NCBI RefSeq assembly: GCF_003334255.1
Contig: NZ_QOWU01000016.1
DNA: 64,000 bases
Reading direction: 5' to 3' (one strand)
DNA from: Escherichia coli
Lineage (GTDB): Bacteria; Pseudomonadota; Gammaproteobacteria; Enterobacterales; Enterobacteriaceae
In this document: positions 52,476 to 58,338 of the stretch, piece by piece
How positions within the stretch are numbered: the stretch's first letter is position 1
Layout of the letters: each line of letters starts with the position of its first letter
Translations under genes and position numbers: made by a program
The notes under the pieces: generated by a model
What the model was told of the DNA's origin: nothing
Seen by the model: only the letters and a program-made list of their open reading frames with translations
The model's database searches: none

Positions 52476-52790
52476 CTACGAATTGATATGTTCCTTGCTG
52501 TAACGCCGCTTCCACGCTGCTGGCGTTAAACCAGTATGTTTCTGAAAAATCTGCCGGAAATAGCCAACGTCATTAAACCGTATTGCATGGAGCAGGCCGA
52601 CAACGTCGAGTCACTGCATAACCTGTTGCTGCCCGCCGATGCGCCATTTACGACATTTGAAGGCAAGGGATTGTTCAGCCATAAGATCCTGATTCAGACG
52701 CCAGGTTCCCGGTATGAACAGAGCAATCCAGAGCAACAACCTTTGTGGCATTACGACGGAGCACCAGCCGCACCGACATCCACCGGTGAA
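52476..52790 (-). pseudogene. Remnant of an AraC/XylS-family regulator: C-terminal HTH region only, broken by an in-frame TGA
   Basis: Minus-strand translation by hand: …NQDLMAEQSLAFKCRKWRIGGQQQVMQ*LDVVGLLHAIRFNDVGYFRQIFQKHTGLTPAAWKRRYSKEHINS*; no N-terminal domain or start codon; abuts the yiaT stop. Confidence 0.45.
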
Positions 52791-53531
52791 TTAAAAACGC
52801 CAGCTCACCCCGGTGACAAAGGTAAAACTCTCATTACGATCAATCATCGGGCTGTCGGTAATCTCTTCCGGCAGCTCGCTGTATCCTGCGCTCGCCATCA
52901 ATACGACGTGCTCTCCTATCGGGTATTTTGCCGTCAGGCTGACATAGGGCACCCAGGCATCCTGCGCGGAATAACTTGCCAGACCGCTACGACGGGACTC
53001 ACTCTCTGAAATGCCATAGTAATAGTCACTGAAATTCTCGTCATAATAGAGAACGCCCAGCGCAGGTGTCAGCGACAGACGACCTATCTGCATTTTGTGG
53101 AATACCGATAGCTCCCCCACCCAGCCGTTGCTGTTATCCAGAACGTCCGCAGCTGCAGAGGCTTTCACGGTTCCCCAACGCTCGTGGTGATACCAGGCAA
53201 CCCCCGCCATAGCCGTACTATCACGCTTATCAAGCTGTTGCATGGCATAATCGTCATTATCGGTAGGGTCAAATTCCAGCGGCATCCAGGATGCGGTCAG
53301 GCTAAGTTCATTTTTTTCACTTTGCGACAGAATAAAACCTAACGTGGTCTGACGAACATAAAAAGTATCACCTTCATAACTAATCAGCGGAATTGCCTTC
53401 GTATTTTCATTATAACCGCGATAAGGCGATTCATTATAAGCCGCACCAGCACCAATGGATAATTCAGAAGCAGTTGCGCTTGCCATAAAAGGCAACGCAA
53501 ATAACGCCACAATATTGCGATTAATTAACAT
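52791..53531 (-). CDS. yiaT: Outer-membrane MipA/OmpV-family protein YiaT (246 aa)
   Basis: Signal peptide MLINRNIVALFALPFMASATA; beta-barrel-like with C-terminal …SWRF. Confidence 0.88.
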   Translation of the reverse strand: MLINRNIVALFALPFMASATASELSIGAGAAYNESPYRGYNENTKAIPLISYEGDTFYVRQTTLGFILSQSEKNELSLTASWMPLEFDPTDNDDYAMQQLDKRDSTAMAGVAWYHHERWGTVKASAAADVLDNSNGWVGELSVFHKMQIGRLSLTPALGVLYYDENFSDYYYGISESESRRSGLASYSAQDAWVPYVSLTAKYPIGEHVVLMASAGYSELPEEITDSPMIDRNESFTFVTGVSWRF

Positions 53532-53654
53532 GTCCGGTATTCCATTTTAAAATAAGATAAAAAAGAGTCGGCATAATAATGCTTACAATTTCTCCGGTGC
53601 AAGATTCATATTTATATAGTAATATATAAAATTATATATAATTGGGCTGTTGCG

Positions 53655-54629
53655 ATGACAAAATTACAACTTAAGTACCGGGAGTTAAAAATTATCTCGG
53701 TAATCGCTGCCAGTGAAAATATCAGCCATGCCGCGACTGTACTTGGCATCGCACAGGCCAACGTCAGCAAATATCTTGCTGATTTTGAATCAAAAGTGGG
53801 TTTAAAAGTCTTTGACCGAACCACCCGGCAGCTGATGCTCACACCTTTTGGCACCGCGCTGTTACCGTACATCAACGACATGCTGGACAGAAACGAGCAA
53901 CTTAATAATTTTATTGCAGATTATAAGCATGAGAAACGTGGTCGGGTCACCATCTACGCCCCAACCGGCATAATTACCTATTTATCCAAACATGTAATCG
54001 ATAAAATTAAAGATATCGGTGATATCACCTTATCGCTAAAAACCTGCAATCTTGAGCGTAATGCCTTTTATGAAGGCGTCGAATTTCCTGATGATTGTGA
54101 TGTTTTAATCAGCTACGCTCCACCAAAAGATGAATCGCTGGTTGCCAGTTTTATTACCCAATATGCCGTAACCGCTTATGCCAGCCAGCGCTATCTTGAG
54201 AAACATCCCATTAGCCGTCCTGACGAACTCGAACATCACTCCTGTATTTTGATCGACTCGATGATGATCGACGACGCGAATATCTGGCGCTTCAACGTCG
54301 CCGGGAGTAAAGAGGTGCGGGATTATCGCGTGAAGGGAAATTACGTTTGCGACAACACGCAATCTGCGCTGGAGCTGGCACGAAATCACCTGGGGATTGT
54401 GTTTGCGCCAGACAAAAGTGTGCAGAGCGACCTGCAAGACGGCACGCTGGTGCCCTGCTTTCAGCAACCCTATGAATGGTGGCTGGATCTGGTGGCTATC
54501 TTCCGTAAACGGGAATACCAGCCCTGGCGGGTCCAGTATGTGCTGGATGAAATGCTGCGTGAAATTCGCCACCAGCTTGCTCAGTCGCAGCAACTGCGGC
54601 CTGAACAAGCGGCGGAAAGCGAAGATTAA
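53655..54629 (+). CDS. yiaU: LysR-family transcriptional regulator YiaU (324 aa)
   Basis: N-terminal LysR HTH (…[38 protein letters not shown]…), divergent from yiaT. Confidence 0.9.
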
Positions 54630-55762
54630 TGATCGAGATAAAGGTAATGCACCCAGCTGGTCATGCGTAATAGCACTTTGCGCATCACCGAGACATGGCT
54701 GAAATGATCAGAGTAAACCGCCACCTGGGCGTAAATACCGTCTGGTAAAGCGCTCAAATCAGTGTGCTCATCCAGTTCAATGGTCGCGATAACGCCATCT
54801 GAACCCGGCGCTGTGTTTAACGTCTGTAAGGTGCCGGTCGACTGATAAGCTCCGCCGGGAACGGCTGGACTAATGGCTGCCAGCTTACCGCTGAATACCT
54901 TACCTGGCAGAGCATTAAACACCACTTCCGCATCGTCGCCAGGAGCCAGTCGCAGCAAGGAGTTCTGACGGAACTGCGCCACGATTTGTCGTTTCTGATC
55001 GGGTATAAACACCATCACCGGACGTAGCGGCAGCGACGCGGCATAGGTACCCGGACGAATCAGTACCTGGGTCACATAACCATCGCTCGGCGCACGCACT
55101 ATCGTCTGCTCAAGGTTATATTTTGCTTCCGCGAGCTGTGCTTTCAGGCTGGCGATTTGAGAATGTTCACCCAACACCAGGCTATCCAGCTGGCTCTGGA
55201 TCTGTTTTTGTTCCGCCGCCGATGACTTCACGGAGGCTTCCTGCGCCAGATAATTTTGCCGCGCCACATCGATATCGCGTTCTGAAAACGGGTTTACTTT
55301 CGCCTGGCTGCCACGTGCGTAACGCTGATACTCTTTAGCGAATTTATCCCGCGTGGCCTTTGCCTGCTGAGTATTCGCCGCCATCTCATCTAACTCTGCG
55401 CCCAACGCCCGCTGTTTATGTTCTGCGGTAACGATATCCGCCATCAGCCGATCCACCCGCACCTGATAACGCGTCGGGTCCAGTCGAAATAGCACCTCAC
55501 CTTTTTTAATCAGCGTATTTTTCTTATCCGTCACTTCAATCACCACACCAGTCACCTGTGGGACAACAGGAATAGAAATAACCGCTTTTTGCGCTTTAAA
55601 GGTATACGGATGGTTATAGTTCATTAACAGAATTAGACCGCTGACAATAAATATTCCACCCAGGGCCGCTGTGGGAATGGTCCATTTATTTACGGGAATT
55701 TTGAAGATCTTAAACATTGCCCATGCAAAAGCCACATAGGTCAAAATAATCAGTAAATCCAT
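54626..55762 (-). CDS. yiaV: Membrane-fusion (HlyD-family periplasmic adaptor) protein YiaV (378 aa)
   Basis: N-terminal signal anchor, coiled-coil middle, adaptor motif [10 protein letters not shown]; stop overlaps the yiaU stop. Confidence 0.88.
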
Positions 55763-55767
55763 AAGTA

Positions 55768-56091
55768 TTACTCGGCAGAAGAGGATTTGATGTCGGCGAG
55801 CTGTTTCTCCAGCCCGGCAATGCGCTGTTGCAGTTGCATAACGGATGAATCATGGCTTTGCATTCCCCATCCCCGCTCCGGGCGGTAAAGCGTGGCCCAA
55901 ATCCACAAAAACGGCCAGATAACATGTAACGTAAAAAGACTCACCCAACCAGCAACATGAATGGCGTCGGCATGAGGATGATTACGTTTTTTGGCAATCA
56001 GGTAGGGAATATCATGTAAAATAATGATCCCATAGAAGATCACCAGAAATACAAAAATAAGCACTCCCAGTGCAAAATAGTCCAGGAACAT
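55768..56091 (-). CDS. yiaW: Small inner-membrane protein YiaW (DUF3302, 107 aa)
   Basis: ATG at 56089-56091 gives [27 protein letters not shown]...; 6 bp upstream of yiaV. Confidence 0.85.
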
Positions 56092-56204
56092 ATTTCCCTC
56101 AAAGAATATAAAAAAGAACAATTAACGCATATTATGAAATGCCATGATGCAGTGCAATTTCCTTATTTATATAACGACATATTGTTTTTTATATACTTTC
56201 TTAA

Positions 56205-56417
56205 ATGTGCTGTCTGGTTTTTCAACAGGACGAGGTTTATCATATTGAAATAGTGGAACTATTGGCCAAACTAATGAATAACTCCAGTAAAACATCCACA
56301 GTACAGATTAAGCGTATTAAACCTTCAATTATCTACCGTTTATTGCTGATTGGCCTCGGATCACCAATGGTGATTTACGGCCTGGTTCGCCCGCTCACCA
56401 TCGAAACGCGAGATTAA
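56205..56417 (+). CDS. Hypothetical small ORF (70 codons; possible single-TM peptide) in the yiaW-aldB intergenic region
   Basis: ORF-track entry only; hydrophobic stretch IIYRLLLIGLGSPMVIYGLV; no convincing Shine-Dalgarno upstream of either ATG. Confidence 0.2.
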   Translation: MCCLVFQQDEVYHIEIVELLAKLMNNSSKTSTVQIKRIKPSIIYRLLLIGLGSPMVIYGLVRPLTIETRD

Positions 56418-56499
56418 ACTCCTGACAAAACACGCCCCAGAAACGTACTTCTGTTGGCGTAGTCTGGGTTATTGCGCACGTAGGTTTAAAACGTAAATT

Positions 56500-56630
56500 G
56501 TAACAACGTGCGCTTTGTTTATGCCGGATGCGGCGTGTACGCCTTATCCGGCCTACGGTCAGGTTCCCGTAGGCATGATAAGACGCGTAAGCGTCGCATC
56601 AGGCAATGAATACCCAATGCGACCAGCTTC
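56500..56630. repeat. REP/BIME elements downstream of aldB
   Basis: gccggatgcggcgtgtacgccttatccggcctac and gtaggcatgataagacgcgtaagcgtcgcatcaggc motifs. Confidence 0.55.
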
Positions 56631-56635
56631 TTATA

Positions 56636-58174
56636 TCAGAACAGCCCCAACGGTTTATCCGAGTAGCTCACCAGCAGGCACTTGGTTTGCTGGTAATGCT
56701 CCAGCATCATCTTGTGGGTTTCGCGACCGATACCTGATTGTTTGTAGCCACCAAACGCCGCATGTGCCGGGTAAGCGTGATAACAGTTGGTCCACACGCG
56801 CCCAGCCTGTATGCCGCGCCCCATCTTATAGGCCAGATTACCGTTGCGGCTCCAGACGCCCGCGCCCAGGCCATATTGCGTATCGTTCGCCAGCTCCAGC
56901 GCTTCTTCCATCGTTTTGAAGGTGGTCACCGCCAGCACCGGGCCAAAAATCTCCTCCTGGAACACCCGCATATTGTTCTGACCAAACAGAATCGTCGGTT
57001 CGAGGTAGTAGCCGTCTTTCAGTTCACCTTCCAGCAGCTTGCGCCGCCCGCCTGTGAGCACGTCAGCGCCCTCTTTTTTACCGATATCAATGTAGTTGAG
57101 GATGGTTTCCAGTTGCCCGTGAGAAACCTGCGCGCCCATTTGCGTCACGCTGTCGAGCGGGTTACCGCTACGAATGCTTTCGACACGGCGGATGGCGCGT
57201 TCCATAAAGCGTTCGTAGATAGATTCCTGCACTAAAGCACGACTCGGACAGGTGCAAACTTCGCCCTGGTTAAAGGCAAACAGTGCAAAGCCTTCCAGCG
57301 CTTTATCGAAAAAGGCATCTTCTTCATCCATCACATCAGCAAAGAAGATATTTGGCGACTTACCGCCCAACTCCAGCGTCACCGGAATAATGTTTTGCGT
57401 TGCGTATTGCATAATTTGTTGGCCCACTTCCGTTGAGCCGGTAAACGCCACTTTGGCGATGCGTTTCGAGGTCGCCAGATATTCGCCAATTACCCCACCT
57501 GCGCCATTGACCACGTTCACCACGCCCGGCGGCAGTAAATCACCGACAATTTCCATTAGCAGCAGTACAGAAAGCGGGGTAAGACGTGCGGGTTTCAGCA
57601 CCACACAGTTGCCCGCCGCCAGCGCGGGAGCCATTTTCCAGCTCGCCATCAGCAGCGGGAAGTTCCACGGGATAATCTGCCCCACCACGCCTAACGGTTC
57701 ATGGAAATGATAGGCCACGGTTTCGCTATCAACTTCACTGATCCCACCTTCCTGCGCCCGAATACACGAGGCGAAATAGCGGAAATGGTCAATCGCCAGC
57801 GGTACATCCGCAGCACTGGTTTCGCGAATGGGTTTGCCGTTATCCCAGGTTTCAGCTGTCGCTAACAGCTCGAGGTTTTGTTCCATTCGATCGGCAATCT
57901 TAAACAGAATCGCCGCACGATCCTGCACCGAGGTGTGCGCCCATTTATCTTTCACTTTGTGCGCAGCATCCAGCGCCAGATCGATGTCTCGTTTGCCCGA
58001 AGACGCCACTTCGCACAGCAGCTGCCCGGTCACCGGCGTCAGATTCTGGTAATACTCGCCGTCGGCAGGGGCTACCCATTCGCCGCCAATAAAGTTGTCA
58101 TAGCGGGCTTTTAACTTGAGGGGGAAACCATACTCGCCGGGCTTAATCTGTGCTGAAGGGGGATTATTGGTCAT
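56636..58174 (-). CDS. aldB: Aldehyde dehydrogenase B (AldB, 512 aa)
   Basis: ATG at 58172-58174 gives [17 protein letters not shown]...; ALDH catalytic Cys context (GEVCTCPSR). Confidence 0.92.
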
Positions 58175-58338
58175 GATCGTCTCCTTGCGGTGTGAGGTAT
58201 AACAAGGGTAGACGTGACTGGCGAAATCTTCGCCAGTCGGTAACAGCTTTACGACAGCTATCACGAATTTACGGGCAAGGGTTACAGAGATAGTTGAAAA
58301 AGCGGCTGACAATTTGCCAGCCGTTGTGGAAATGATGA

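Follow-up and report, generated by a model that had tools for sequence, protein, structure and literature searches.

The 64,000-nucleotide stretch of Escherichia coli DNA analysed here (contig NZ_QOWU01000016.1 of assembly GCF_003334255.1; hereafter the window) carries four genes, yiaT, yiaU, yiaV and yiaW, the last two of which encode a periplasmic adaptor of the type found in export systems and a small inner-membrane protein of the DUF3302 family. E. coli K-12 has two such "orphan" adaptor pairs, yiaWV and yibIH, which have been functionally open for decades. Here we describe the anatomy of the yia locus and show that a DUF3302 protein and a YiaV-type adaptor are encoded together across distant bacterial lineages, that no pump gene is recurrently linked to them, and that in three lineages they are instead linked to a gene for a TolC-family outer-membrane protein. 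The predicted structure of YiaV and the conservation of its membrane segments are then considered together with these data in weighing how such a pair might work.

Organization of the yiaTUVW locus

Bases 52600-56400 of the window are 100% identical to E. coli K-12 MG1655, and the same four genes are annotated by RefSeq. The first, yiaT (52791-53531, minus strand; 246 amino acids, aa), identified from its open reading frame (ORF), Pfam and RefSeq, encodes an outer-membrane protein of the MipA/OmpV family. It is followed by yiaU (csuR/lpsR; 53655-54629, plus strand; 324 aa), a LysR-type transcription factor gene according to its ORF, NCBIfam and the literature. Next comes yiaV (54626-55762, minus strand; 378 aa), encoding an EmrA/MdtN-like periplasmic adaptor as judged by Pfam, NCBIfam, an AlphaFold2 model, Foldseek and alignment A2, and finally yiaW (55768-56091, minus strand; 107 aa), whose ORF, Pfam match, alignment A1 and RefSeq entry indicate a DUF3302 inner-membrane protein. 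To judge from their sequences, the four ORFs are real, conserved genes rather than chance ORFs, because their products match Pfam families: MipA for YiaT (PF06629, E = 4.9e-52, residues 26-246), DUF3302 for YiaW (PF11742, E = 2.7e-43, residues 3-78), and CusB_dom_1 (5.5e-15) and HlyD_D23 (1.8e-9) for YiaV.

An earlier note on this DNA had placed the four ORFs at these positions and strands, in agreement with the ORFs, RefSeq and the identity to MG1655. Its extension of yiaW to 56121 describes the longest ORF (55768-56121, minus strand), which begins with TTG, whereas the annotated start is the ATG at 56091, preceded by a Shine-Dalgarno-like GAGGGA. Between the yiaW stop codon (55768-55770) and the yiaV ATG (55762) lie 5 nucleotides (nt; TACTT) and not the 6 bp given in that note. 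The genes yiaU and yiaV converge with overlapping stop codons, as had been described, the overlap being 4 nt (54626-54629), with 2 nt in common between the two TAA stops. Also as described, yiaU diverges from yiaT, the two being separated by an AT-rich promoter region of 123 bp (53532-53654; 38-39% GC) with promoter-like sites. GC content is 37-40% across 55750-56500, the upstream side of yiaW included.

A published constitutive sigma-70 promoter of yiaWV (CAGACA-17-TATAAA; PMC3946193) could be placed in the sequence at 56188-56216 on the minus strand, although our own consensus promoter scan upstream of yiaW ranked another site, 56268-56239, above it. Both promoter regions, yiaT/yiaU and yiaWV, have been flagged as H-NS-bound (PMC3946193), which fits the measured 37-40% GC. 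A comparison of the yiaT/yiaU intergenic region with the region upstream of yiaW for a shared LysR-type box returned AT-rich chance matches only, and Rfam gave solely sub-threshold REP-derived naRNA4 matches upstream of yiaW. No pump gene follows yiaV: the gene runs into the convergent yiaU, with no FUSC/AaeB pump gene downstream, and in the RefSeq annotation sgbE/araD with two pseudogene fragments flanks the four genes on one side and aldB on the other.

DUF3302 genes are paired with YiaV-type adaptor genes

In E. coli, yiaW and yiaV behave as one operon, because their gap is only 5 nt, no credible terminator was found between them, homologous pairs are as closely spaced (-8 to +21 nt in 85 unique DUF3302-adaptor pairs), and a "yiaWV" operon with a sigma-70 promoter is listed by genomic SELEX (PMC3946193). 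The two-gene operon proposed in the earlier note is thereby upheld.

Homologous loci (designated by L numbers below) were gathered from genomes (72, one genome per species), from contexts around exact proteins (18) and from metagenomes (80). An adaptor of the YiaV type directly follows the DUF3302 gene in all 69 genome-derived loci with enough downstream sequence. Overall it lies immediately downstream of 155 of 175 DUF3302 ORFs, most of the others ending at contig edges. The DUF3302 family is large, with at least 7,990 clusters at 90% identity and 881 at 50%, and no DUF3302-adaptor fusion protein was present among its top 150 representatives, all of 229 aa or less. From this gene arrangement, DUF3302 and the YiaV-type adaptor appear to be an old, self-contained and widespread two-gene module.

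An outer-membrane factor, but no pump, is linked to the pair in some lineages

Clustering of 131 complete adaptors at 60% identity yielded 22 lineages, about 16 of which are informative for linkage to TolC-family (OEP) genes. No ABC, MFS, RND or FUSC gene recurs beside the pair in these 131 complete pairs and 22 lineages. Besides the OEP genes, no family recurs as a same-strand, operon-like neighbour across the 22 lineages, none being seen in more than three. The observation that no pump gene follows yiaV thus extends from this locus to the homologous ones. The earlier note had suggested searching by co-occurrence for a conserved partner pump; none is consistently encoded nearby, a result that favours either a partner gene at another locus or a system that lacks any classical pump.

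An OEP gene adjoins the pair in all loci of three lineages (7/7, 3/3 and 1/1). The OEP gene comes first in Reichenbachiella and its relatives, a Bacteroidota lineage (OEP-DUF3302-adaptor), and last in the two others (DUF3302-adaptor-OEP); the DUF3302-linked OEPs are 46-68% identical to each other. In one locus, L081, a canonical FUSC-OEP-DUF1656-AaeA-like operon lies at a distance of about 2 kb from a second operon, DUF3302-adaptor-OEP, which has no pump. Each of these side-by-side operons has its own outer-membrane factor, the FUSC-linked OEP being merely 23% identical to the DUF3302-linked ones. As far as gene content can tell, L081 is a natural control, with a pump next to the AaeAB-type system but none for the DUF3302 system. 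Established tripartite systems almost always have the adaptor gene beside its pump gene, while the outer-membrane factor is often unlinked. The DUF3302 loci reverse this pattern, with an OEP linked in three lineages and no pump recurrently.

OEP linkage as a general rule, which the first seven distant contexts had suggested, was overturned by the metagenome scan (3 of ~16 lineages). In two loci, Rhizobium L078 and Thiohalocapsa L077, large ORFs that adjoin the pair were suspected to encode outer-membrane factors and were discarded, as neither NCBIfam nor an OEP query or OEP profile matched them.

Seven loci from Serratia, Yersinia, Pantoea, Biostraticola and Enterobacter (L020, L021, L037, L048, L063, L067 and L070) have a gene for a DUF3313 lipoprotein (PF11769, E = 2.6e-45) next to the pair. 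In Serratia L063/L067/L070, Biostraticola L020 and Enterobacter sp. kpr-6 L048, five of the seven, this gene immediately precedes the pair on the same strand, and the Serratia loci also carry a divergent LysR gene. A DUF3313 gene is found as well 6.5 kb upstream of the pair in an unrelated metagenomic lineage (L084/L085, 1-536). This lipoprotein could be an envelope partner of the pair.

YiaV is predicted to be an EmrA-type adaptor with conserved membrane segments

The AlphaFold2 model of YiaV (mean pLDDT 77) comprises N-terminal helices 2-19 and 28-50, lipoyl-type strands, a beta-barrel, a long alpha-hairpin (97-152 and 161-218) and a C-terminal helix (352-375). Its best Foldseek match is EmrA in the cryo-electron microscopy structures of EmrAB-TolC (8zar/8zal; E = 1.7e-20, TM-score 0.62-0.66). 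EmrA, MacA, AcrA and MexA all match the model with probability 1.00, EmrA ranking above the other three, and a PDB sequence search related YiaV to EmrA at E = 1e-11. The best NCBIfam matches are EmrA/EmrK and MdtN (MdtN joint-best, E = 2.9e-32), with scores below the curated cutoffs throughout (bits: TIGR00998 EmrA/EmrK, 112 vs 391; MdtN, 112 vs 376; AaeA, 62 vs 400; EmrA, 52 vs 563). The predicted structure thus gives YiaV the lipoyl-like, beta-barrel and alpha-helical hairpin domains of an HlyD/EmrA-type adaptor (TCDB 8.A.1). The model and its Foldseek match to EmrA bear out the earlier assignment to the HlyD family; in the literature, YiaV is listed as an uncharacterised membrane fusion protein (TCDB 8.A.1.1.4; PMC10971958).

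YiaV and EmrA have in common a membrane anchor at the N terminus, a lipoyl domain, a beta-barrel and a long alpha-hairpin, and a separate membrane-proximal domain is not shown in YiaV by model secondary structure or by Pfam. By this likeness, TolC would be the expected outer partner of YiaV in E. coli. YiaV differs from EmrA in having two conserved N-terminal hydrophobic helices together with a conserved C-terminal helix, in a C-terminal region (299-378) that falls outside the EmrA sequence alignment, in the pairing of YiaV-type adaptors with a DUF3302 protein, and in that no emrB-like MFS gene is linked to yiaWV.

The inner-membrane anchor is formed by the hydrophobic helices predicted at 2-19 and 28-50, and the presence of two conserved helices rather than one is unusual. 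In alignment A2, mean column identity is 0.77 for the first membrane helix, 0.81 for the cytoplasmic loop, 0.76 for the second membrane helix, 0.92 for the motif MNYNHPYT, 0.78 for the C-terminal helix and 0.50, the lowest value, for the alpha-hairpin. The hairpin varies in length in the family, and Ferrimonas, Thiohalocapsa and the OEP-linked lineages lack large parts of it. An ordinary adaptor is least constrained in its anchor. Because conservation in YiaV is instead highest there, its membrane portion probably does something specific, most simply packing against DUF3302. By the positive-inside rule, the lysine-rich loop between the two helices would face the cytoplasm.

YiaW and the DUF3302 family

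YiaW has two predicted transmembrane helices with a conserved His/Asp-rich turn (HDIPY...) between them, followed by RPERGWG and a C-terminal helical tail. It fits the DUF3302 core HDIPY...HPHxDAIH...WPFLWIWA, which contains invariant residues in alignments A1 and A4, and its turn and second helix are near-invariant among distant lineages. In a model of a YiaW-linker-YiaV fusion (pLDDT 75), helices are predicted at 2-35, 41-67 and 80-103 of the YiaW part. The KKR/His-rich turn, again by the positive-inside rule, is expected to face the cytoplasm, and the conserved His/Asp cluster is a candidate ion- or proton-binding site. A PDB profile search found no solved structure for any DUF3302 relative; weak matches to a rhodopsin helix pair (E = 0.004) were the only ones and were set aside as matches of transmembrane composition. 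The function of DUF3302 is not discussed in the searchable literature.

The small-protein-plus-adaptor layout of yiaWV had been likened in the earlier note to that of aaeXA. The layout is indeed shared, since AaeXAB, YdhIJK and MdtNOP (FUSC-type systems with an EmrA-like adaptor, in which AaeX and YdhI are DUF1656 proteins) likewise have a small membrane protein gene followed by an adaptor gene. The likeness does not extend to homology: YiaW belongs to DUF3302 rather than DUF1656, YiaV falls far under the AaeA and MdtN cutoffs, and no FUSC pump follows yiaV. YiaW was rejected as an AaeX homologue, BLASTP and hhalign having found no similarity to an AaeX query (which matches DUF1656, PF07869, at E = 3.9e-20); nor did the DUF3302 profile resemble the DUF1656 protein of L081.

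yiaU-yiaT is a separate regulator-target module

YiaU has 50 LysR-family NCBIfam matches that span its full length (helix-turn-helix and substrate-binding domain), with the YafC and GcvA models at E ~1e-25 (YafC: positions 6-287, E = 5e-25) and no equivalog cutoff reached. ChIP-exo and RNA-seq led to its renaming as LpsR, with a yiaT log2 fold change of +2.8 in the knockout, waa genes down and an oxacillin phenotype (PMC9068703). It was also renamed CsuR by Shimada et al. 2022 (Microbiology 168:001166), as cited in PMC9308461. For yiaU, the earlier view that all four genes lack an assigned physiological function therefore no longer holds. YiaU represses yiaT, which is derepressed when yiaU is deleted (PMC9068703). 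This is the classic arrangement of a LysR regulator with a divergent target, except that the yiaU regulon extends to the waa lipopolysaccharide (LPS) genes and others. YiaT also matches the NCBIfam model of Vibrio OmpV (E = 6.6e-27) without reaching its equivalog cutoff, and, according to the titles of published papers, serves as a surface-display anchor. The convergent yiaU-yiaV arrangement has been listed as an excludon (PMC12288877).

The earlier note treated yiaT-U-V-W as one cluster. Comparative evidence rejects it as a conserved functional unit, since yiaU-yiaT lies beside a DUF3302-adaptor pair in Escherichia, Citrobacter and Pseudocitrobacter only. In Enterobacter, Lelliottia and Leclercia, yiaU-yiaT is found 6-8 kb from a pair that is closer by identity to yibIH, and in Serratia, Yersinia, Pantoea, Vibrio, Aeromonas and others it does not adjoin the pair. 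Serratia loci have a LysR gene beside the pair, in one case with a MipA-like gene too. On gene order, yiaU-yiaT is best described as a regulator-target module distinct from yiaWV, with which it shares an insertion/deletion block in E. coli and a cell-surface theme.

Distribution in E. coli and the paralogous pair yibIH

The yiaWV segment was present in 3,770 of 5,426 complete E. coli genomes (~69%). Where present, the yiaTUVW genes are intact and 95-100% identical across 3,800 genomes, and Citrobacter and Pseudocitrobacter keep the same block, with YiaV protein identities of 83-90%. About a thousand genomes match just the first 170 query bases, within a GH127 gene. In the urine isolate HS1496, the one such genome inspected, an araC-MFS-GH127 cluster abuts aldB directly and yiaTUVW is missing; in O157:H7, araC-MFS-GH127 is followed by yiaT-U-V-W. 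By these comparisons, all four yia genes form one insertion/deletion block that is accessory in E. coli. In K-12, fragments of AraC-family regulator and GH127 genes lie at 52476-52577 (minus strand) and 52581-52769 (plus strand), and they look to be a deletion remnant of the araC-MFS-GH127 cluster, because the intact cluster occupies the same position in O157:H7 and HS1496.

The second pair, YibI-YibH, is built alike: a DUF3302 gene and then, after 2 nt, the gene for an adaptor of 378 aa, again with no linked pump and an equally uncharacterised function. Its small protein is 74% identical to YiaW and its adaptor 77% to YiaV. It differs in lying beside mtlA without a LysR or MipA neighbour pair, and in being core (5,384 of 5,426 complete E. 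coli genomes, 99%) where yiaWV is accessory. In Pseudocitrobacter and Citrobacter, pairs of the yiaWV and yibIH types lie ~9-17 kb apart (L008/L050, L014/L057 and L028/L051). In E. coli HS1496, yibH is ~7 kb past aldB; in K-12, where rhsA separates yibF from yibH, it is outside the window. A third pair, in Serratia, is more divergent (60% adaptor identity).

Published phenotypes touch both pairs. In uropathogenic E. coli, yibI and yibH are urine-induced, and deletion of yibI lowered both adhesion and fitness in urine (competitive index 0.33; PMC5404293). Deletion of yiaW raised Ca2+-mediated transformation efficiency (Zhu et al., as cited in PMC12844161), and yiaV is mildly induced in mixed biofilms (PMC3646849). 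An IS1 insertion at nt 263 of yiaW was selected during experimental evolution in macrophage co-culture, although yiaW::aph alone had no effect on phagosome maturation in a LAMP1 association assay (PMC5495878). IS1 also interrupts yiaU in strain G6/7 and yiaW in strain E70. These insertions may reflect either targeting of the yiaU/yiaW locus by IS1 or selection for its loss.

Discussion

The individual genes of this locus are already known and annotated; it is the system-level pattern that appears to be undescribed in the searchable literature, namely an obligate pairing, no linked pump, a lineage-specific linkage to outer-membrane factors, and conserved membrane segments in the adaptor. The picture of the locus itself is also corrected, in that yiaU-yiaT stands apart as a module already characterised in part, and the block as a whole belongs to the accessory genome of E. 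coli.

Our best reading, proposed tentatively and with somewhat less confidence than doubt, is a conduit that docks on TolC, has an inner-membrane unit made of YiaW and YiaV themselves, and works without a classical pump. A translationally coupled operon, expressed from the H-NS-silenced sigma-70 promoter upstream of yiaW, would produce a single inner-membrane complex. YiaV, like EmrA, would oligomerise into a periplasm-spanning tube docking on TolC, a step suggested by analogy with EmrAB-TolC, in which EmrA is hexameric (entry 8zar has six chains); in the three OEP-linked lineages, the operon-encoded TolC-family protein would be the outer partner. A ring of YiaW and YiaV membrane helices might then fill the slot taken elsewhere by an ABC, MFS, RND or FUSC pump, and the pair with its outer-membrane factor could constitute a self-contained trans-envelope conduit or exporter for a small substrate. 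In its general form, this would make DUF3302, the YiaV-type adaptor and TolC or a dedicated outer-membrane factor a self-sufficient, pump-less tripartite machine, maybe ion- or proton-coupled through the His/Asp cluster or tied to an antiporter, an extension that we consider doubtful.

Several points weigh against this proposal. The YiaW-YiaV complex, the oligomerisation of YiaV, its docking on TolC and pump-free transport are all steps that we infer, and the YiaW-linker-YiaV fusion model yielded no usable interface information. We know of no two-helix protein with a known energy-coupling mechanism. OEP linkage is confined to 3 of ~16 informative lineages, being absent from about 13, and is found in 0 of 68 informative enterobacterial loci. 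Two DUF3302 loci have no adjoining adaptor, L113 and L121. The yiaWV segment is absent from ~31% of complete E. coli genomes, and the single-gene phenotypes published so far are mild (PMC5495878; Zhu et al. as cited in PMC12844161). Finally, Na+/H+ exchanger (PF00999) genes adjoin the pair in three unrelated lineages and may encode its real inner-membrane partner (L081 9716-10933, L086 9757-10980, L141 6605-7810, L002 9451-10635 and L097 3887-5107). In L081, L086 and L141, the exchanger is the fourth gene, continuing the DUF3302-adaptor-OEP operon. By impression rather than formal test, this adjacency looks commoner than chance for so rare a gene class.

The two adaptor-free loci differ in content. 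In L121 (191-3535), a patatin-like phospholipase gene stands after the DUF3302 gene in the place of the adaptor gene, followed by a Ca2+/H+ exchanger gene, and in L113 (5740-6468), the region downstream of the DUF3302 gene holds just fragmentary ORFs.

A rival account, itself on the unlikely side, is that YiaV and YiaW are an accessory adaptor pair for a conventional transporter encoded elsewhere (MFS, ABC, FUSC/PET-type or a cation/proton antiporter), with YiaW an auxiliary like AcrZ or AaeX. The full EmrA-type adaptor fold of the YiaV model speaks for it, as does the recurrent adjacency of the exchanger genes, and, to our knowledge, all EmrA-type adaptors whose function has been established serve a pump. 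In E. coli it is normal for the partners of TolC to be encoded at other loci, and the E. coli FUSC-like proteins YccS and YhfK are not known to have an adaptor of their own. It is harder to reconcile with an OEP being linked in three lineages when a pump is never recurrently linked in 22. It also sits uneasily with L081, where the AaeAB-type system retains its adjacent pump and the DUF3302 system has none, and with the obligate DUF3302 pairing and the conservation of the YiaV membrane helices, which set YiaV apart from ordinary adaptors.

Less probable still, in our view, is a non-transport role in the envelope, in which the adaptor fold would be used for its reach, as a periplasm-spanning tether, or the pair would act as a surface modulator within the CsuR/LpsR regulon. 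In E. coli, the pair shares its block with a MipA-family outer-membrane gene and a regulator of LPS and the cell surface, and elsewhere it is accompanied by the DUF3313 lipoprotein gene in seven loci, by a LysR gene in Serratia and by a MipA-like gene in one locus. The hairpin is variable in length and much deleted in some lineages, and deletions of yiaW (as cited in PMC12844161) and yibI (PMC5404293) have envelope-related phenotypes. The operonic linkage to TolC-family genes in three lineages points to a conduit instead, the closest fold match is to the adaptor of an assembled pump, and beyond a few enterobacterial genera yiaU-yiaT is not linked to the pair.

That yiaTUVW in K-12 is a silenced, dispensable islet without current function, its pair a redundant duplicate of core yibIH, is very improbable: the patchy presence of the block beside a near-universal yibIH, its AT-rich promoters reported as H-NS-bound (PMC3946193), and the IS1 insertions in natural isolates and experimental evolution and the lack of a phagosome-maturation effect of yiaW::aph (PMC5495878) all fit it, yet the genes are intact and nearly invariant across E. 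coli, the block is kept in Citrobacter and Pseudocitrobacter, and the family is under strong sequence constraint across distant lineages.

If the pump-free conduit is real, it would represent a new architecture among envelope-spanning export machines and give a function to a widespread domain of unknown function. If it is not, the same data guide the search for the missing pump, with cation/proton antiporters as one lead. Although the function itself is only inferred, the long-standing question of the orphan adaptors thereby becomes a specific and testable hypothesis.

Additional features of the region

PADLOC defence-system models matched none of the four proteins at E <= 0.001. A Fic-family gene lies between aldB and yiaY in HS1496 (L088, 11104-12399) and in O157:H7 (L169, 10399-11694); in K-12, which is without it, the aldB-yiaY spacer is short (~58175-58338). 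The interval between aldB and yiaW contains REP/BIME-type repeats at 56473-56646, seen as three overlapping naRNA4 (RF02564) matches on both strands that score 33-40 bits against a gathering score of 59.5. The AT-rich region upstream of yiaW also contains, at 56274-56417 on the plus strand and divergent from yiaW, a RefSeq-annotated ORF for a "hypothetical protein" of 47 aa (WP_001066080.1) that has one hydrophobic segment.

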